This document shows, one piece after another, positions 83 through 6,935 of a stretch of 6,935 bases of DNA; positions within the stretch are counted from its first letter, which is position 1, and every line of letters starts with the position of its first letter. The notes beneath the pieces were generated by a model. That model was not told where the DNA came from, searched no databases, and saw only the letters and a program-made list of their open reading frames with translations. This DNA comes from Candidatus Iainarchaeum sp. (GTDB taxonomy: Archaea; Iainarchaeota; Iainarchaeia; Iainarchaeales; CSSED10-239), in the NCBI GenBank assembly GCA_028700115.1, contig JAQVTI010000022.1, forward strand, positions 1 through 6,935. The letters are read 5' to 3'. The translations under genes were made by a program, and so were the position numbers.

Positions 83-652
83 TTAAATTAAATTATTAAT
101 CTGCTCTTTTATTTTAATGATGGTATCAAAAAATTCGTAACCACTAAAAATTATTTTTTCACCGGGCTTAAATTTTTTTAATATTTTATTTTTTATACAT
201 ACCCCCTTTGCTGTGTGTTGCTTGTGAGTTATAGAGACCCTTATATTTTTTAATTCTCCAAAAATGTCATAACATACTTCGTCTTTTTTTAAATTCTTAA
301 TGTTTGCAATCTTTTGACGATATTTATCCTCCCATAAATTATATATTTGTGTTAAAATTATATTTGTTAGAATTTGGTGTCCACCAGATTCAAATTTTTT
401 ATATATTTCATCAGTAGTTTCAGAAGCAATTAATGGGAGTCCTTCACACACATAATAAATAGGAATCGGATTTTCACAATTTGGCCATATTTTTTTTATT
501 ATCCAAGGATATTTTACTGGTTTTACAAAATCTAAATATACATTTGTTGCTGAAATATAATTTAAATATAATTTAAGTAACTCATCAATTTCTAATAGGA
601 ATTCTGATTTAATCATTGATAATTGTCTTTCAGCAGACATATTTTCACACAT
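83..652 (-). CDS. Hypothetical protein with C-terminal HEPN-like Rx4H signature; candidate partner or antitoxin of the upstream RnlA-like::RNase HIII gene
   Basis: 189-codon ORF starting 9 nt after the stop (662-664) of the 598-aa ORF on the same strand, so probably co-transcribed. No clear SD; an alternative ATG lies at 640. The C-terminal half reads ...ILTQIYNLWEDKYRQKI...FGELKNIR138VSITH143KQ (R codon 239-241, H codon 224-226). This is an R-x4-H spacing after helical-looking sequence, as in HEPN RNase active sites. I recognise no other family. Confidence 0.6.
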   Translation of the reverse strand: MCENMSAERQLSMIKSEFLLEIDELLKLYLNYISATNVYLDFVKPVKYPWIIKKIWPNCENPIPIYYVCEGLPLIASETTDEIYKKFESGGHQILTNIILTQIYNLWEDKYRQKIANIKNLKKDEVCYDIFGELKNIRVSITHKQHTAKGVCIKNKILKKFKPGEKIIFSGYEFFDTIIKIKEQINNLI

Positions 653-661
653 TAATAATTT

Positions 662-2458
662 TTATTTATCAATAATCTCTTTCACATTTTTAAAATTCAT
701 TTTAATATAATTATCTAAATCATGATCAGATAATTTAGATTCCTGCTTTAATTGTTTAATAAATTCGATTACATTTTGACCAGCACCCTTAGGTAAAACA
801 CAATCTATATTTTCTCCTAACGCTTTAATTTCATAAAGAAATTGGGCCCTAGCAATTACAGAAGCCACAGCTACTGAAATATTACTCTCGGCCTTTGGAA
901 TCTTTATTAGATGTATTCTTTTGCCTAAGTTCATCAAACTTTTCTCAACTAATCCATTATCTTCAAATTGATCAGCAATTACTGTTTCACAGTTTATATT
1001 CTGTTTAGACAGCTCAGTTAACAAATTTTCTAAAGATCTCGCATGTTCCCAAGCCAATAATTTATTTAAATTTCTTATTTTACTATATAACTCATTATAT
1101 TTTTTAGGTTTTACGGTTACATTTACCCAATAGATTTCTTTTTTAGTTTTTATTAAATCGAATAGTTCTAATATCTTTTTATCGTTTATTTTCTTAGAAT
1201 CTTTAATTCCACTATTAATTAAAAATGTAATGAAATCTTTATCTCCAGGAACATATGCCGCCACAGTAACTAATGGTCCAAAAATATCTCCTTTCCCAGA
1301 TTCATCTATGCCTATTGCACTAAAAGTATCTGCTTGATTTAATTTCTTATTTTCATCAAATTGAATTATATAAACAGATAATAAATCTCTCATTATTTCT
1401 AAAATATTATAAATAATTTTTTCGGCATCTTTAAAATCAATAATCGGTGGCTTTATAGGATCTGAATGAAATAACTCGTTTCTACTTTTTTGCCAAGTAG
1501 GCCACAATAAAGAAAATAATGTTGAATTAGTTCTATTTATCGTAGGAAATATATTTCTTAATCTTTCAATATTATTATTATCTTTTAAATAAGCACCAAT
1601 TTTATTATTTTTTATAGATTCTGAAGACAGATAAAAATCTTCAGAAAGCTCTCCTACATTATACAATAATTTTAATAAAAAACCTTCATACACAATACCT
1701 AATGGTCGCACTATTTGAGCATAATTTAAAATAGAATCTTTTTTATCTGAAACGATTTGGTATATAGATAACATATCTAATAATTCTACCGTATCATTTG
1801 AATATAAAAATTCAATTAATGCTCTTAATTTATATTTCTCTACTAATCGCTCGTGATATTTAAACATTTTCTCTTTAAATTCATCATAATTTATATCTAT
1901 TTCATTATGATTTTCTTCAAAAATTAATTTTAATGTATTATAGTTTTTTTCAGTACGTTTATTTATTATAAAATCCATAACATCTTTCAAATCTTTGCTT
2001 TCCTTTCCTTGGATATTTATAGTCCCATTATTATAAATTGTAATTGTTGTTGTTAAAAATTTATAATTCTTCTGGCCGTTGAATAGTTGTTCTTTAAATT
2101 CTTTAACTTTTAAAAAATCCTCAATTTTTTTTAAAATTAAATTGTCTAATTTAGAATTAAAACTTACAGATATACTTATCATTCTAGTGCCTTTTTCTAT
2201 TTTAATATTATTTTCTTTAAAATTAGATTCTATTTCTAAACGATTATTTTTTATTTGAGAGAAATCAATATTAGAAGTATTATCTTTTTTCGAATAAATA
2301 CGAATATATCCACATATTTCTTTATTTTTATGCACTAAAATTTGAAATCCATTATTTATTGGATTTGATTTTACAATAGTAAATGGCTGTTTTATTTTAC
2401 TTTTAATATAATTTTCGTCAACCTTAAATAGAACATTCATATAATTACACCATTTCAC
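662..2458 (-). CDS. Multidomain nuclease: two TBP-like (RNase HIII N-domain/RnlA NTD-NRD-like) modules + HEPN (Rx4H) domain + RNase HIII-type (RNase HII family) catalytic domain
   Basis: 598-codon ORF with a GTG at 2458; ATG at 2440 (MNVLFK...) is an alternative start. aa ~95-165 contain TITIYNNGTINIQGKES, matching the RNase HIII N-terminal TBP-like motif (Bacillus: ITAYQSGKVLFQGK). aa ~40-70 (GYIRIYSKKDNTSNIDFS) look like a second, more divergent copy. aa ~205-365 contain VRPLGIVYEGFLLK and WQKSR326NELFH331SD (R codon 1481-1483, H codon 1466-1468), an RN-x3-H HEPN motif. aa ~380-575 match RNase HIII throughout: GIDESGKGDIFGPLVTVAAYV, IKDSKK, ADQF, PKAESNISVAVASVIARAQFL, LPKGAG. The putative DEDE tetrad is intact: D385/E386 (1301-1306), D496 (971-973), E524 (887-889). 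Confidence 0.85.
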   Translation of the reverse strand: MKWCNYMNVLFKVDENYIKSKIKQPFTIVKSNPINNGFQILVHKNKEICGYIRIYSKKDNTSNIDFSQIKNNRLEIESNFKENNIKIEKGTRMISISVSFNSKLDNLILKKIEDFLKVKEFKEQLFNGQKNYKFLTTTITIYNNGTINIQGKESKDLKDVMDFIINKRTEKNYNTLKLIFEENHNEIDINYDEFKEKMFKYHERLVEKYKLRALIEFLYSNDTVELLDMLSIYQIVSDKKDSILNYAQIVRPLGIVYEGFLLKLLYNVGELSEDFYLSSESIKNNKIGAYLKDNNNIERLRNIFPTINRTNSTLFSLLWPTWQKSRNELFHSDPIKPPIIDFKDAEKIIYNILEIMRDLLSVYIIQFDENKKLNQADTFSAIGIDESGKGDIFGPLVTVAAYVPGDKDFITFLINSGIKDSKKINDKKILELFDLIKTKKEIYWVNVTVKPKKYNELYSKIRNLNKLLAWEHARSLENLLTELSKQNINCETVIADQFEDNGLVEKSLMNLGKRIHLIKIPKAESNISVAVASVIARAQFLYEIKALGENIDCVLPKGAGQNVIEFIKQLKQESKLSDHDLDNYIKMNFKNVKEIIDK

Positions 2459-2608: not shown

Positions 2609-3304
2609 ATGGACTTTGTAAATTTTGAATCAGATATTAATACCATAACCACAACTGCCGGTTATATAGACGCGATAAAAAACGGAATTGTCCCTAAAAT
2701 CTTTAAATATAGACTTACTATAACTGATCATGATGTAATTGGATATATTGAAACAAAAGATAAAATTATTATTCTAGAGATTCAATGTAAAGATCAAAAT
2801 GAATATAATAGCACACAACTTGGAACAATAGACGGCTATAAATCAGAATATGGTTTTTTTACTTCTGGAGGAAATAATTTACCCCAATTTAGAAGAATAC
2901 ACTATACAGAGAACAACGCTTTTTTTGACTGGATAACTGATTACACAAATGTTGAAACTGATGTTAAACCAAGTTCTCCATTAAATCAGATAATTAAATC
3001 ATCAATTCATACAGTATATTGCTTTTCTAATAAATTCAAAAATCAAAAAACCATACTTGTTTTTCCTATTATTTGTATTTCTAATCAAAAAATAAATTCA
3101 GCAGTATATGTAACAAAATTAAAATACGAACAATTTACAAATCCCGCATTTAAGCGTTGGATTACAGAAACTTATAAAATAAAAGAATCTGAAATTAATT
3201 TTAATGGACAGATTCCTATAATTTTATGTAATAAAGAAGGATTAATTAAAATATTAGAAGACATAAAATGCTATAAAGATAAAATACGATTAGCATTAGA
3301 TTAA
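2609..3304 (+). CDS. Hypothetical protein (orphan, no family recognised)
   Basis: 231-codon ORF divergent from the 598-aa gene across a 150-bp AT-rich spacer. No SD precedes the only N-terminal ATG (cacataatatagtATG). The alternating hydrophobic strands DHD42VIGYIETKDKIIILE57IQ59CK61 are faintly reminiscent of a restriction-endonuclease-like core but are not canonical. Coding status rests on ORF length and the absence of competing ORFs. Confidence 0.5.
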   Translation: MDFVNFESDINTITTTAGYIDAIKNGIVPKIFKYRLTITDHDVIGYIETKDKIIILEIQCKDQNEYNSTQLGTIDGYKSEYGFFTSGGNNLPQFRRIHYTENNAFFDWITDYTNVETDVKPSSPLNQIIKSSIHTVYCFSNKFKNQKTILVFPIICISNQKINSAVYVTKLKYEQFTNPAFKRWITETYKIKESEINFNGQIPIILCNKEGLIKILEDIKCYKDKIRLALD

Positions 3305-3500: not shown

Positions 3501-4259
3501 ATGTCAGTTAAAGATTATATGCAAGTTTGTATTAATGGTCATAAGATAAATGGAATGACTTCCCGCCATCCCGAAAATAATAAAGATTTTTGCCCTAAAT
3601 GCGGTGCAAAAACAATTGACTCCTGTCCAAGGTGTGGTGCATTAATTGATGGAGATATAATTGTTAGTGCTGCACATTTCCCTAAATCAGTTTATGATTA
3701 TTGCGGAGAATGTGGTAAACCATTTCCCTGGGCAAAAAACAAAGTGCAAATAAATAGTATAGATAATACAAAAAAGGGAATGACTATAAATCTTAGAAAA
3801 CAACAAGACGAATTATCAAAATACAATACAATTTATGATCAATTAGAAATACATCCAGAAATAAAAAATGTTTCTGAATCTTTATTTAAAACGGAACATT
3901 ATTCTGAAGCAATAGAAGCTTCATTTAAGCAAATTATCTTATTAATTAAAGAAAAAACTAATTACCCAAAAGATAAAAATAATGAATCCGAATTAGATGG
4001 GGCAAAATTAATGCGCGAAGTTTTTAATTTATCTAAAAAAACTCCTCTATTAAAACTTAATAGTCTTGTAACTCAAACAGACATAAATGAACAAGAAGGA
4101 TTTATGAATATTTTCGTTGGAGCAGTCCAAGGAATAAGAAACCCAAAAGCACACGCTAATTTAAATTTAAAAGATCCTCAAAAAGCAATCGAATATATTC
4201 TATTTGCCAGTTTACTTGCAAGAAAAATTGATGAATCAAAATTAAATAAAAAAGAGTAA
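3501..4259 (+). CDS. Zinc-ribbon (DUF2321-like) + HEPN (TIGR02391/Ymh-type) protein
   Basis: 252-codon ORF. The N-terminus reads C10-INGH...FC31PKC34GAKTIDSC42PRC45GALIDG...YC68GEC71GKPFPW. These paired CxxC knuckles follow the pattern I recall for DUF2321. The C-terminus reads EAIEASFKQI...FMNIFVGAVQGIR213NPKAH218 (R codon 4137-4139, H codon 4152-4154), the RNPxAH signature of the Ymh/TIGR02391 HEPN family. Only a purine-rich weak RBS (agaaagaagaaatATG). Confidence 0.8.
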   Translation: MSVKDYMQVCINGHKINGMTSRHPENNKDFCPKCGAKTIDSCPRCGALIDGDIIVSAAHFPKSVYDYCGECGKPFPWAKNKVQINSIDNTKKGMTINLRKQQDELSKYNTIYDQLEIHPEIKNVSESLFKTEHYSEAIEASFKQIILLIKEKTNYPKDKNNESELDGAKLMREVFNLSKKTPLLKLNSLVTQTDINEQEGFMNIFVGAVQGIRNPKAHANLNLKDPQKAIEYILFASLLARKIDESKLNKKE

Positions 4260-4325: not shown

Positions 4326-5264
4326 TTATAAAAATCCTTTCAATTCATAAATCTTATATTCTTTATATTCCCAATCTATTTGCTTTTCTGTAAATTTCTC
4401 TCTCCAATAGGTGTGGCTATTTCTAACAGTTGAATCTCCAACCAGTATAGAATTTGTATCTGCTTTACTTTGAATTTTTACAACAATATTCATTGTTTCG
4501 CCTATTAAATCTTTGTGTTGTTTATTTTCACCACCAATTATTATAGATGTAACTTCACCAGAATCTAAACCGATTCTAAACTGGAGTTCTGGATATCCTT
4601 GAGATTTTAAAATTGGATTCATTATTTTTTCTATAAATAATTTCATAGTGCTTGCACAATAAACGGCATTGTCAGTCATACCTTGAAAATTCGGTTCTGG
4701 AAAATAAGCAATAATCCCGTCTCCTAAATATTTTAAAACAAATCCCTGGTAATTAGTAACTATATAATCCATTTCTCTAGAAAAAAGAGATATTAATTTT
4801 ACATTTTTATCAGGAGCCAAATTTTGACTTAATTTTGTAGACCCTTTTAAGTCAATAGATAATATTGTATATTTACGCGTATCATTGTTTAATTCTGATA
4901 AAAAATCTTCTGATTTATCTACGGGATTATAATTTTGAACCTCAATGTTTAGAAAGTGTTTTATATAATCTATTCTAGGTAATAATAATTTTTCTATGTC
5001 GTTTTCTTGTGGAGGATTATATCTTAATGGTAATTTGCCTAGATTTTTCATTAATTTATTATATACTTCTTTTTCAAGTATATGAATTTCATCAAATTTA
5101 TCAAACAAATACCATTCTCCATCAATTAATTTTCGGTCATACCTTTTAGGATCTGGCTCAAATCTAAATGTAACAATACCCGTCTCTTCATCTAAATTTT
5201 CTATGTGCTGTATAAAATCCATCCGGCCTATTTTATCAGATAATGGCATAATATCCCCCCACAT
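4326..5264 (-). CDS. Class III nucleotidyl (adenylate/guanylate/pyrimidine) cyclase-domain protein with unknown ~130-aa N-terminal domain
   Basis: 312-codon ORF. aa ~131-310 carry the class III cyclase motif series. These are YTILSID138LKGST (first metal Asp, 4851-4853), FVLKYLGD182GIIAYF (second metal Asp, 4719-4721), LQFRIGLDSGEVTSIIIGG, and DLIGETMNIVVKIQS (Asn retained; the usual Arg is Lys), then ILVGDST. ATG at 5264 lies 8 nt after the upstream stop. An alternative start is M6 at 5249, preceded by the G-rich TGGGGGGATATT. Confidence 0.8.
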   Translation of the reverse strand: MWGDIMPLSDKIGRMDFIQHIENLDEETGIVTFRFEPDPKRYDRKLIDGEWYLFDKFDEIHILEKEVYNKLMKNLGKLPLRYNPPQENDIEKLLLPRIDYIKHFLNIEVQNYNPVDKSEDFLSELNNDTRKYTILSIDLKGSTKLSQNLAPDKNVKLISLFSREMDYIVTNYQGFVLKYLGDGIIAYFPEPNFQGMTDNAVYCASTMKLFIEKIMNPILKSQGYPELQFRIGLDSGEVTSIIIGGENKQHKDLIGETMNIVVKIQSKADTNSILVGDSTVRNSHTYWREKFTEKQIDWEYKEYKIYELKGFL

Positions 5265-5272
5265 TAATTATC

Positions 5273-5551
5273 TTAATGATTATCTCCTCGTTGCAATTTA
5301 AGAATAAATTCCCTGTTTCTTTCTATTCTTTCTTCAATTTCTTTAAAATCTTTCTCTTTTAGATTAAAAAATTCATCTAAAGAAGAACCTAAATCACTAG
5401 TACTTTTTATATTTAATTTTATTGCGTCAAACCTTGGTTTTGAAGAATCTAAATAACGCTGTAATCGTTTATTTTCCTCATGTAGATCTTTAATCATATA
5501 ATTAACACTATTAAATCTGAATGTGTTATTTTTAAATATATTAAAATCCAT
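5273..5551 (-). CDS. Small (92-aa) predicted helical/coiled-coil protein, translationally coupled to the cyclase
   Basis: Listed as a 137-aa ORF (5273..5686). The internal ATG at 5551 has a good RBS (AAAGGTGAAATTatg), whereas the longer form would overlap the HNH gene by 46 nt and has no RBS. The sequence is charged and heptad-like (EENKRLQRYLD..., KEKDFKEIEERIERNREFILKLQ). No family recognised. Confidence 0.55.
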   Translation of the reverse strand: MDFNIFKNNTFRFNSVNYMIKDLHEENKRLQRYLDSSKPRFDAIKLNIKSTSDLGSSLDEFFNLKEKDFKEIEERIERNREFILKLQRGDNH

Positions 5552-5640
5552 AATTTCACCTTTAATAAATACCTTTAGTTTTTCAAGTTTATATAGCTTT
5601 CTGGAGTAAATGTCCGGTAATAAACATAAGAATTGGAAAC

Positions 5641-5868
5641 CTAATGGTTTCCAAAACTGTGTGTTCTTTTGTGGCATTCTTGACAAAGAATTTTACAATT
5701 CTCTAACTTATCTGATCCGCCATCAGAAACTGCTTTTATATGGTGTGCTTCCCAACCATACTCACTTTCTTTGCCACGACTTTCCCATAAAAGTTGTTTC
5801 TTACATTTTTCACATTTCCCATCAGCTCTATCCCAAGCCAGTTTTATTGTTGTTTCATCAAATGACAT
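5641..5868 (-). CDS. Mini HNH endonuclease (75 aa)
   Basis: The sequence is GKC-EKC...GWEAHHIKAVSDGGSDKLENCKILCQECHKRTH. It has a CxxC...CxxC zinc knuckle pair and an H-N-H core (HH...N...H). The ORF track starts at GTG 5877. ATG at 5868 is better spaced from the GGAG (taGGAGtgtgaagaatATG) that overlaps the upstream stop. Confidence 0.8.
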   Translation of the reverse strand: MSFDETTIKLAWDRADGKCEKCKKQLLWESRGKESEYGWEAHHIKAVSDGGSDKLENCKILCQECHKRTHSFGNH

Positions 5869-5881
5869 ATTCTTCACACTC

Positions 5882-6142
5882 CTAGTTTATTTTTCTCCCA
5901 TTTTTCTTTACATCAGCAACAACTCTGCTATAGCTACGTCCAACTGGTTTTATAGCAACAGATTGTCCTGCAATCTTTTTTGTAAGATTTTGCTTTGCAG
6001 AGGTATAACCTCTTTCACCCTTATCAGGGGCATCTACATTTGCTAGACGAATATAGTTAGATCCATTTACTTTAGTTCCAACTTTAAAAGTATCGCCATC
6101 AATTACTTGTGTTACTTTCCTATGTACAATTTTATTATTCAT
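5882..6142 (-). CDS. Truncated/minimal staphylococcal nuclease (SNase/thermonuclease)-like OB-fold protein (86 aa)
   Basis: Strong RBS (AAGGAG at 6151-6156, 8-nt spacer). VIDGDTFKV...IRLANVDAPDKGE...GYTSAKQNLTKKI...GRSYSRVVADVKKNGRKIN aligns by eye with SNase AIDGDTVKL...FRLLLVDTPETKH...YGPEASAFTKKMV...YGRGLAYIYADGKMVN. The protein ends where the SNase C-terminal helices would begin. Confidence 0.7.
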   Translation of the reverse strand: MNNKIVHRKVTQVIDGDTFKVGTKVNGSNYIRLANVDAPDKGERGYTSAKQNLTKKIAGQSVAIKPVGRSYSRVVADVKKNGRKIN

Positions 6143-6563: not shown

Positions 6564-6935
6564 TTATTTAATATCACCCTTTTGCAAATTCTCTAAATTT
6601 TGTAATGAATATGATCCTTCAAAATATTTTTTATAAACACTCACATCTTTTCTTTCATTAAAATTAGCCAATGTAAAAAGAGAAGTGCTCTGATCTTTGT
6701 TCTTTTCTGTAAAATATATTTGATCATGCCTTAATCCAGAAACCTTGAAATTTAATAAATCATAACAATGAGTAGTATATATTACTTGTGCAGATTTATT
6801 TTGATCACCATTAATATATTCATTTAAAAAACAAACTAGCTTTGGATGTAAACTTGATTCAATTTCATCAATTACTAAAATTCCCCCTGCATTTATATGA
6901 TGAACTATAGCTGCAGCTTTTTCAATAAATTCAAT
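6564..6935 (-). CDS. ABC-type/AAA_21-like ATPase, C-terminal 123 codons (5' part outside the window)
   Basis: Hand translation of the minus strand in frame with the right edge gives IEFIEKAAAIVHHINAGGILVIDEIESSLHPKLVCFL...QVIYTTHCYDLL...KGDIK*, with stop at 6564-6566. ILVIDEIESSLHP is a Walker B/D-loop and TTH is the H-loop, as in the SMC/ABC-like AAA_15/AAA_21 ATPases common in defence systems. No fused TOPRIM or nuclease domain follows. Confidence 0.7.
   Translation of the reverse strand: MEFIEKAAAIVHHINAGGILVIDEIESSLHPKLVCFLNEYINGDQNKSAQVIYTTHCYDLLNFKVSGLRHDQIYFTEKNKDQSTSLFTLANFNERKDVSVYKKYFEGSYSLQNLENLQKGDIK

Follow-up and report, generated by a model that had tools for sequence, protein, structure and literature searches.

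RnlA and LsoA of Escherichia coli are HEPN toxins of anti-T4 toxin-antitoxin systems, and RnlA is toxic to its host unless it is neutralised (PMC5308261). In RnlA, the TBP1 domain is needed for substrate binding, and activity needs a canonical dimerisation of the HEPN domain that is blocked by RnlB; Arg318 and His323 have been shown to be catalytic, and Arg255 is a subfamily-specific residue involved in substrate binding (PMC8266594). RnlA acts mainly on phage mRNA, and the gene for RnlB lies downstream of the gene for RnlA (PMC3710099, PMC5308261). RNase HI is needed to activate RnlA, stimulates its activity and associates with its NRD; RnlA needs RNase HI also for its restraint by RnlB, by a mechanism that the authors describe as not understood (PMC5308261). 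Covalent unions are known as well: in the proteins described by Anantharaman et al. (2013), RNase LS HEPN domains follow a type 1 RNase H-fold domain at the N-terminus, and others are joined to a TBP-like domain resembling the one in RNase HIII, from which the authors inferred the targeting of RNA in DNA-RNA duplexes (PMC3710099). Here, we describe a gene on contig JAQVTI010000022.1 (assembly GCA_028700115.1, Candidatus Iainarchaeum sp.); the window analysed is the complete contig of 6,935 bp. The predicted product joins an RnlA/LsoA-like TBP1-TBP2-HEPN region to a complete RNase HIII catalytic domain, and we favour, with moderate confidence, an accessory role for it in a conflict system, as an RnlA-family two-headed RNase whose two nucleases are both predicted to be active.

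The open reading frame (ORF) of the fusion gene occupies 662..2458 of the minus strand and, in the ORF list, encodes 598 aa from a GTG at 2458. Most likely, the start codon is instead the ATG at 2440, since the N-termini of homologues (MIVSF.../MNVLF...) align to it. A Shine-Dalgarno-like GGTG lies 8 nt upstream of this ATG, and a TATA-like box (TTTATATAA) lies approximately 45 nt upstream of it. The database protein P0001 has the identical sequence of 592 aa and is named 'ribonuclease HIII'. All residue numbers below refer to the 592-aa form; adding six converts them to those of the first-pass annotation of this DNA, whose R326/H331 and D385/E386 correspond to Arg320/His325 and Asp379/Glu380. 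Translation confirmed the coordinates of the ORF and the presence of every motif quoted for it, with TITIYNNGTINIQGKES at residue 132, SRNELFH at 319 (Arg320 and His325) and, in the RNase HIII part, GIDESGKGD at 377, ADQF at 489, KAES at 516 and LPKGAG at 549; the motif VRPLGIVYEGFLLKLL, which contains Glu252, is also present. The coordinates of the domains and active-site codons are collected in Table 1.

The C-terminal third of the protein is readily recognised. The Pfam family RNase_HII matches it with E=6e-29, and the NCBIfam model rnhC (TIGR00716) reaches 174.3 bits, above its curated cutoff of 161.2, in a match that spans profile positions 69-284 and leaves out the N-domain. The best PDB matches are RNase HIII throughout: solved chains match at E=1e-22 in a sequence search, and the Foldseek comparison with Bst-RNase HIII gives E=1.7e-13 at a root mean square deviation (rmsd) of 3.1 Å. 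The full DEDE set of RNase HIII is present: Asp379 and Glu380 align with the DE pair of the solved enzymes, Asp490 lies in the ADQF motif, and the fourth acidic residue, Glu518 in PKAES, aligns with KAES of Bst-RNase HIII. As judged from sequence and model, this region is a bona fide RNase HIII catalytic domain with its active-site residues intact, and it is predicted to be active. Its setting is different from that of the canonical enzyme, in which one TBP-like N-domain adjoins the catalytic domain in a chain of ~300 aa: here the chain has 592 aa, a HEPN domain of 180 aa stands between, and the catalytic domain, by the alignments, directly follows the HEPN domain without an RNase HIII N-domain of its own. 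Compared with the bacterial RNase HIII of Geobacillus (2D0A), Aquifex (3VN5) and Thermovibrio (4PY5), the fusion protein likewise passes the rnhC cutoff and has the DEDE set and a TBP-like domain; on the other hand, it is about twice as long, has a second TBP-like domain and the HEPN domain after its first TBP-like domain and ahead of the catalytic one, and is sporadic rather than distributed like a housekeeping gene.

The nature of the N-terminal two-thirds emerged from profile searches. Residues 1-370, as a single sequence or as a 3-sequence profile, gave nothing useful in Pfam, NCBIfam, PADLOC or the PDB, and the sole direct Pfam signal in this part is a weak DUF3378 match on the ...NNGTINIQGK motif. 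The link to RnlA surfaced only when a profile of residues 1-372 was run against 1.8 billion representatives, which returned 63 relatives. Together with the window protein and its homologue P0002, these form a set of 65 sequences, and each was scanned singly against Pfam: RnlA-toxin_DBD was found in 28 members, RnlA_toxin and RNase_HII in 27 each, HEPN_RnaseLS in 17 and DUF3378 in 16. In one relative, P0015, a single chain exceeds the gathering cutoffs of three Pfam models, RnlA_toxin, RnlA-toxin_DBD and RNase_HII. A profile of the 25 fused proteins matches LsoA (5HY3) with E=2.4e-5, and the match is colinear, profile positions 11-343 running along LsoA residues 15-326; family FEGF pairs with IEGF of LsoA, family W..cRnk.lHSDP with WHENRHGLFH, and the second TBP motif of the family with KIYKRGSIQFQGK. 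The same profile also matches the N-domain of Aquifex RNase HIII (E=0.0012) and an archaeal TBP (E=0.008). Similarly, an hhalign comparison of the 3-sequence window clade with 12 unfused RnlA-like proteins of ~360 aa, among them 9 with a Pfam RnlA-toxin_DBD match, gave 99.5% and E=1e-22 over 222 columns. The curated RnlA models miss the window protein while the profile of its clade matches, which implies that it is a divergent relative and not a member by curated thresholds.

Based on these profiles and on the models described below, the N-terminal ~370 aa are an RnlA/LsoA-like TBP1-TBP2-HEPN array. TBP-like domain 1, the putative equivalent of the RnlA NTD (TBP1), is divergent, with ...IDFSQIK where ...QGK is usual. 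TBP-like domain 2 carries TITIYNNGTINIQGKES, and relatives match Pfam RnlA_toxin over this region. The first-pass annotation had taken this motif for that of the RNase HIII N-domain; the motif is there, but its module is best read as the second TBP domain of RnlA (NRD) rather than as the N-domain of RNase HIII itself. In the HEPN domain, of RnlA/LsoA (RNase LS) type, the Rx4H motif RNELFH is equivalent to Arg318 and His323 of RnlA and aligns with RHGLFH of LsoA, so that the LFH ending given for the LsoA motif was correct. The RPLGIVYE segment aligns with ALRAIEGF of LsoA, its Glu252 corresponds to Glu258 of RnlA, and the RPLGIVYEGF motif is completed just beyond it by Gly253 and Phe254 (1679-1684).

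The predicted structure agrees with this division. The full-length AlphaFold2 model (mean predicted local distance difference test score, pLDDT, 88.2) consists of a beta-rich module at residues 9-75, a second beta-rich module at 87-177, an all-helical module at 183-362 and an alpha/beta RNase H module at 372-592; TBP-like domain 1 is modelled as strands at 20-63 and a helix at 67-75, with pLDDT above 90. In a Foldseek search of the full model against the PDB, all 39 matches at E<=0.001 are RNase HIII/HII chains or E. coli RnlA, and RnlA is the only non-RNase-H fold family among these significant matches. The RnlA chains (6Y2P, 4I8O and others) match at E=3e-7 to 6e-5 with a probability of 1.00 over ~380 columns, RnlA itself having 355 aa. 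The full-length TM-score to RnlA is low, which we attribute to a differing domain orientation, as large rearrangements occur between the states of RnlA. The best viral structure match (BFVD) is an 'RNaseLS-like protein' at E=3e-7. When the HEPN domain was modelled alone (pLDDT 91.9), the nearest PDB structure was RnlA (TMq 0.60, rmsd 3.7 Å), followed by LsoA (TMq 0.57), and another HEPN protein ranked below both (TMq 0.35); the only PDB matches with a Foldseek probability above 0.4 were RnlA, LsoA and the HEPN protein 4NQF, and TetR-family regulators, which rank among these, stayed below 0.1. The features of the HEPN superfamily, an all-helical domain and an RNELFH motif with invariant arginine and histidine, are both present. 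Profile and structure searches thus both found the RnlA/HEPN similarity of the middle region, and the architecture proposed in the first-pass annotation, two TBP-like domains, an Rx4H HEPN domain and a complete RNase HIII in one chain, is borne out by sequence profiles and predicted structure alike. The principal matches of both parts of the protein lie well outside what chance would produce.

Both active sites are conserved across the family. The 25 fused proteins share 53-70% identity with the window protein within its clade and 21-33% outside it, and the following residues are nevertheless invariant: Gln144 and Gly145 in TBP-like domain 2; Glu252, Gly282, Arg320 and His325 in the HEPN domain; and Asp379, Glu380 and Asp490, with their surrounding motifs, in the RNase HIII domain. 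Gly253 and Glu518 are nearly invariant. The retention of catalytic residues at such low identity indicates that both nuclease centres are under selection.

By comparing the fusion protein with the described systems, its likely place among them may be outlined. With E. coli RnlA and LsoA (4I8O, 6Y2P, 5HY3) it shares the order TBP1, TBP2, HEPN, the Rx4H motif and the subfamily-specific glutamate, and it is colinear with LsoA over ~310 residues; it also shares with RnlA a tie to an RNase H, which is RNase HI in trans in E. coli and a fused domain here. It differs in the additional 220-aa C-terminal RNase HIII domain, in the lack of an RnlB/LsoB gene, in an identity of only ~12-18% without a direct Pfam match, in the equivalent of the basic residue Arg255, which may be shifted by one turn, and in a host labelled as an archaeon. 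The fusions of Anantharaman et al. likewise join an RnlA-type HEPN domain covalently to an RNase H activity; however, their RNase H is of type 1, N-terminal and in place of the TBP-like region, whereas it is of type 2, C-terminal and alongside both TBP-like domains here. These differences in RNase H type, chain end and TBP content imply that the type 1 and type 2 fusions are independent events.

The first-pass annotation had stated, correctly, that RnlA needs or is stimulated by host RNase HI (PMC5308261), and had read a fusion as a Rosetta-stone link between the two activities. The fusion exists, but the principle is not new, as HEPN-RNase H 'two-headed RNases' were predicted in 2013 by Anantharaman et al. 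(PMC3710099); the novelty lies in the partner, a type 2 enzyme (RNase HIII) at the C-terminus, and our literature search returned no description of an RNase HIII fused in this position. That an RnlA-type toxin and an RNase H have been united covalently a second time, independently, speaks for a functional and ancient association and against a quirk of E. coli, and it offers independent genomic support for the dependence of E. coli RnlA on RNase H. With both activities in one chain, the fusion is also a model for dissecting the coupling by means of two point mutants, and it extends the RnlA-like toxins to a metagenome-assembled genome (MAG) labelled as a DPANN archaeon.

The fusion is rare, patchy and non-syntenic, and it usually stands beside defence genes. 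Only two close homologues, P0002 (68% identity) and P0003 (50%), were found among 5.8 billion proteins; both have the same architecture, the first domain of P0003 being split off by an assembly N. The clusters of the family at 90% identity that were looked up hold 1-4 sequences each and, if named at all, are called 'ribonuclease HIII' only. The named hosts include the MAG labelled as an Iainarchaeum-like DPANN archaeon, a Nitrospirales MAG, several Chloroflexota MAGs and one Clostridia MAG. A genome scan with the HEPN alignment of a subclade, which yielded eight GTDB genomes, samples Chloroflexota-type members only, a metagenome scan yielded only contigs of genome types already found, and the viral contigs of IMG/VR gave no relatives with two query alignments. 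P0013 (assembly GCA_028279725.1) lies on a 240-kb contig and adjoins a 172-aa ribosomal protein of the L16/L10e family and a 218-aa TIM, sizes that we take to be archaeal. In a neighbour-joining (NJ) tree of the catalytic domains, which carries no support values, most fused proteins group together and three are placed elsewhere, so that the tree does no more than suggest one origin of the fusion.

The independent loci of the window clade share no neighbour besides the fusion gene itself. Among the related loci, the neighbours include a type IIG restriction-modification (RM) gene and a Schlafen-like gene (L003), Shedu SduA_C and HicA (L006), methyltransferases and an integrase (L008), an NgoPII RM gene (L009), a type I HsdR with PDDEXK and HNH genes (L019), and methyltransferases with a transposase (L021); the Schlafen-like neighbours are ATPases. 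In the window, the corresponding neighbours are a PycC-like cyclase, a Ymh-HEPN protein resembling PD-Lambda-3_B and an HNH nuclease. This bears on a different explanation, that the protein is a housekeeping enzyme, the RNase HIII with which an archaeal lineage of reduced genome would remove primers and R-loops, and to which an RNA-binding or -processing module was added, the HEPN domain serving RNA maturation. The database name and the intact catalytic domain are in line with such a role, as is L003, where the fusion gene lies mainly among housekeeping genes (ribosomal protein, TIM, HIT and prenyltransferase). Against it, only three close long-form proteins, including that of the window, exist among the 5.8 billion, in tiny clusters; the long-form loci lack synteny, and the same architecture is scattered over unrelated bacterial phyla. 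The neighbours are mostly restriction, Shedu and other defence genes, and the supposed insert is not lineage-specific, being homologous to RnlA toxins and keeping their catalytic residues. We therefore consider a housekeeping role improbable, and the conserved, syntenic housekeeping gene that the first-pass annotation had named as the finding that would speak against its proposal was not what the searches returned: the gene is rare and patchy and has no shared neighbour.

Two short forms add to the case for a housekeeping enzyme. P0006 (319 aa) and P0076 (317 aa) lack TBP-like domain 2 and the HEPN domain, and thus have the canonical RNase HIII layout; over TBP1 as well as the catalytic domain, their identity to the window clade is 59-78%. 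The two align colinearly (62% identity) and share synteny in that each is preceded by a small HNH_3 gene encoding 73 aa. Yet Shedu and type I RM genes precede even P0006. Far more distant relatives (~30% identity) share the long form, and the short forms are read on that ground as probably a deletion-derived paralogous lineage; in the NJ tree mentioned above, which is a rough one, they fall within the window clade. As a side observation, P0006 and the long-form P0002 come from the same sample, and both contigs end exactly 77 nt past the stop codon.

A further question is whether the fusion protein acts with a partner. At 8 bacterial loci, an RnlA-like gene of the family is followed by a conserved downstream gene of ~425 aa, whose product combines TPR repeats and DUF7017 with a cold-shock-like OB domain at the C-terminus (TPR-CSD). 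This gene usually overlaps the upstream one by 4 nt and matches the PADLOC 'TPR' model PDLC01170 ('TPR repeats containing protein fused to cold shock-like domain') with E down to 8e-47. A named PADLOC system for PDLC01170 was not found, and a literature search on 'TOTE' systems, a name that occurs in a weak Pfam match, returned no paper. At one of these loci, L017, the upstream gene encodes an unfused RnlA-like protein of 375 aa that matches Pfam RnlA_toxin above the cutoff. The unfused gene has the same TPR-CSD partner, which implies that the RNase HIII is an optional module, gained or lost within a wider two-gene family. One unfused relative carries a fused cold-shock domain. These modules of Chloroflexota and other bacteria belong to the same family as the window protein and have the same fusion, at 21-33% identity and with both centres conserved; they differ from the window locus, which has an unrelated ORFan, in their overlapping TPR-CSD gene, and some of them carry an insert of 70-130 aa before the RNase HIII domain. 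The TPR-CSD partner is absent beside P0056 and in the window clade. The insert between HEPN and RNase HIII occurs in P0008, P0014, P0019, P0022, P0023, P0031, P0048 and P0062 and at L011-L013 and L016, with the conserved pattern ...W.I......V.AP......V.G......F...Y; it was suspected to be an RNase HIII TBP-like N-domain, which would be a third TBP-like domain, but Pfam is empty for it at E<=10.

In the window, the gene downstream of the fusion gene is a co-oriented ORFan of 189 aa, separated from it by a 9-nt gap. A toxin-antitoxin or other two-gene system, in which the product of this gene would restrain the fusion toxin, accords with that spacing, with the position of RnlB downstream of RnlA in E. 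coli (PMC3710099, PMC5308261) and with the translationally coupled TPR-CSD genes, which show that partner dependence exists in the family. However, the ORFan product has no Pfam, NCBIfam or PADLOC match and no homologue but itself among the 5.8 billion proteins, and it is unrelated to RnlB and to the TPR-CSD partner; at L002, the locus of the closest homologue, an unrelated membrane protein stands at the equivalent position, and other loci of the window clade and of archaeal type have unrelated or convergent genes downstream. Such a system, compatible with the favoured reading save for its stand-alone action, is possible but rather unlikely, and the downstream gene proposed as a partner in the first-pass annotation has no support as an antitoxin. 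The idea that it is itself a HEPN protein or antitoxin, from its Rx4H-like RVSITH, was also rejected, since it has no homologues and an hhalign comparison with the HEPN profile was negative, in a test insensitive enough to miss the known Ymh HEPN as well.

Based on the results presented above, an accessory role in conflict, with both nucleases predicted to be active, is the reading that we hold to be fairly probable. The protein would be an anti-virus or anti-mobile-element effector that acts by abortive infection or growth arrest, and its gene would work stand-alone. The TBP-like domains would bind double-stranded nucleic acid in the manner of RNase HIII and of TBP1 of RnlA, which serves substrate binding. 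The RNase HIII domain would bind and cut the RNA strand of RNA:DNA hybrids that arise from the replication or transcription of an invader, such as primers and R-loops, and this engagement would license the canonical dimerisation of the HEPN domain, leading to indiscriminate mRNA cleavage. The fused RNase H would thereby provide in cis what RNase HI contributes in trans to RnlA of E. coli. It is the defence function, the hybrid trigger and the coupling of the two active sites that we infer. In a more specific and tentative form, which we think rather doubtful, recognition of the hybrid by the RNase HIII/TBP module would allosterically release the HEPN domain into its active dimer, making the protein a self-contained abortive-infection switch. 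If this were true, RNase H would be the long-sought activating input of RnlA-type toxins generally, E. coli RNase HI would serve the same purpose in trans, and the type 1 and type 2 RNase H fusions would be convergent solutions to the same need.

The conservation of both catalytic centres would also suit a nuclease that attacks the invader directly and without suicide, its RNase HIII domain cutting primers and hybrids and its HEPN domain cutting viral mRNA, uncoupled and without killing the host. 'Multiple cuts' by two-headed RNases, including RNase LS-RNase H-fold fusions, were proposed in 2013 (PMC3710099), and phage mRNA is described as the main target of RnlA. Yet the sequence holds nothing that would confer specificity for an invader, RnlA is toxic to the host when not neutralised, and its HEPN activity needs a regulated change of dimer state. 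The uncoupled and coupled models cannot be separated from sequence data, and we hold the direct attack to be quite unlikely.

Several observations weigh against a conflict role of the RnlA type. The window protein does not match RnlA_toxin (PF15935), RnlA-toxin_DBD (PF19034) or HEPN_RnaseLS (PF18869) at E<=0.1 and has no PADLOC model match, and the Foldseek E-values of the HEPN-only model to RnlA are not significant (0.3-1.8) and provide a fold ranking only. The RNase HIII part can stand alone, as in the short forms, and the surroundings at L003 are mainly of the housekeeping kind. No RnlB-like gene, which could explain how self-toxicity is restrained, was found among the related loci examined. 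The window is a single 6.9-kb contig, and any other RNase H genes of the host would lie beyond its reach. In addition, the position of Arg255 of RnlA, three residues before the glutamate, is an isoleucine in the window protein and hydrophobic in the window clade; most other fused clades have lysine or arginine there. The window clade has an arginine seven residues before the glutamate (Arg245), one helical turn earlier on the same face of the helix, and from the alignment this residue may substitute for the Arg255 equivalent, the substrate-binding residue having been relocated by one turn. If the favoured reading holds, proteins annotated merely as 'ribonuclease HIII' would be flagged as probable conflict-system effectors, including the two-gene variant with TPR-CSD.

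Table 1. Positions of the fusion gene, its predicted domains and active-site codons, the other genes of the window, and genes at related loci
Feature	Sequence	Position	Strand	Remark
Whole gene, RnlA-like::RNase HIII fusion	window	662..2440	-	592 aa from ATG 2440; stop codon 662-664
TBP-like domain 1 (RnlA NTD/TBP1 equivalent)	window	2201..2440	-	aa 1-80; AlphaFold2 and LsoA-colinear profile
TBP-like domain 2 (RnlA NRD/TBP2 equivalent)	window	1910..2188	-	aa 85-177; weak DUF3378, LsoA profile
HEPN domain, RnlA/LsoA (RNase LS) type	window	1355..1894	-	aa 183-362; all-helical
RPLGIVYE segment	window	1685..1708	-	codons R245-E252
Rx4H motif RNELFH	window	1466..1483	-	R320..H325
RNase HIII (type 2 RNase H) catalytic domain	window	665..1327	-	aa 372-592; Pfam, NCBIfam, PDB, Foldseek
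Catalytic D379-E380 (GIDESGKGD)	window	1301..1306	-	invariant in 25 fused proteins
Catalytic D490 (ADQF)	window	971..973	-	invariant in 25 fused proteins
Fourth acidic residue E518 (PKAES)	window	887..889	-	nearly invariant
Downstream co-oriented ORFan	window	83..652	-	189 aa
Flanking gene	window	2609-3304	+	231 aa
DUF2321 zinc ribbon and Hypoth_Ymh HEPN-type protein	window	3501-4259	+	252 aa
PycC-like nucleotide cyclase	window	4326-5264	-	312 aa
ORF, function not recognised	window	5273-5686	-	137 aa; precedes the PycC-like cyclase gene
HNH endonuclease	window	5641-5877	-	78 aa; E=1.5e-11; overlaps listed start of 137-aa ORF
Weakly staphylococcal nuclease-like protein	window	5882-6142	-	86 aa; E=0.01
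C-terminal gene fragment	window	6567-6935	-	123 codons; runs off right contig end
TPR-CSD gene	L009	5351-6625
TPR-CSD gene	L011	9377-10660
TPR-CSD gene	L012	9392-10672
TPR-CSD gene	L013	9410-10690
TPR-CSD gene	L014	4104-5504
TPR-CSD gene	L016	9404-10699
TPR-CSD gene	L017	5346-6632
TPR-CSD gene	L020	2168-3376
Unfused RnlA-like protein	L017	4191-5318		followed by TPR-CSD gene
Short form P0006	L005	5721-6680
Short form P0076	L018	316-1269

The remaining genes of the window include further candidates for conflict functions. The PycC-like cyclase is matched by 13 PADLOC models for PycC (Pycsar cyclase), with E=3e-21 for the best of them, and its vicinity holds no recognised Pycsar effector. The 231-aa product of the gene flanking the fusion gene on the other side has no Pfam, NCBIfam or PADLOC match. 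The protein with an N-terminal DUF2321 zinc ribbon carries a Hypoth_Ymh (TIGR02391) HEPN-type domain at its C-terminus and matches PADLOC PD-Lambda-3_B (E=1e-10) and Aga_HEPN, making it a second HEPN protein on the same 7-kb contig.

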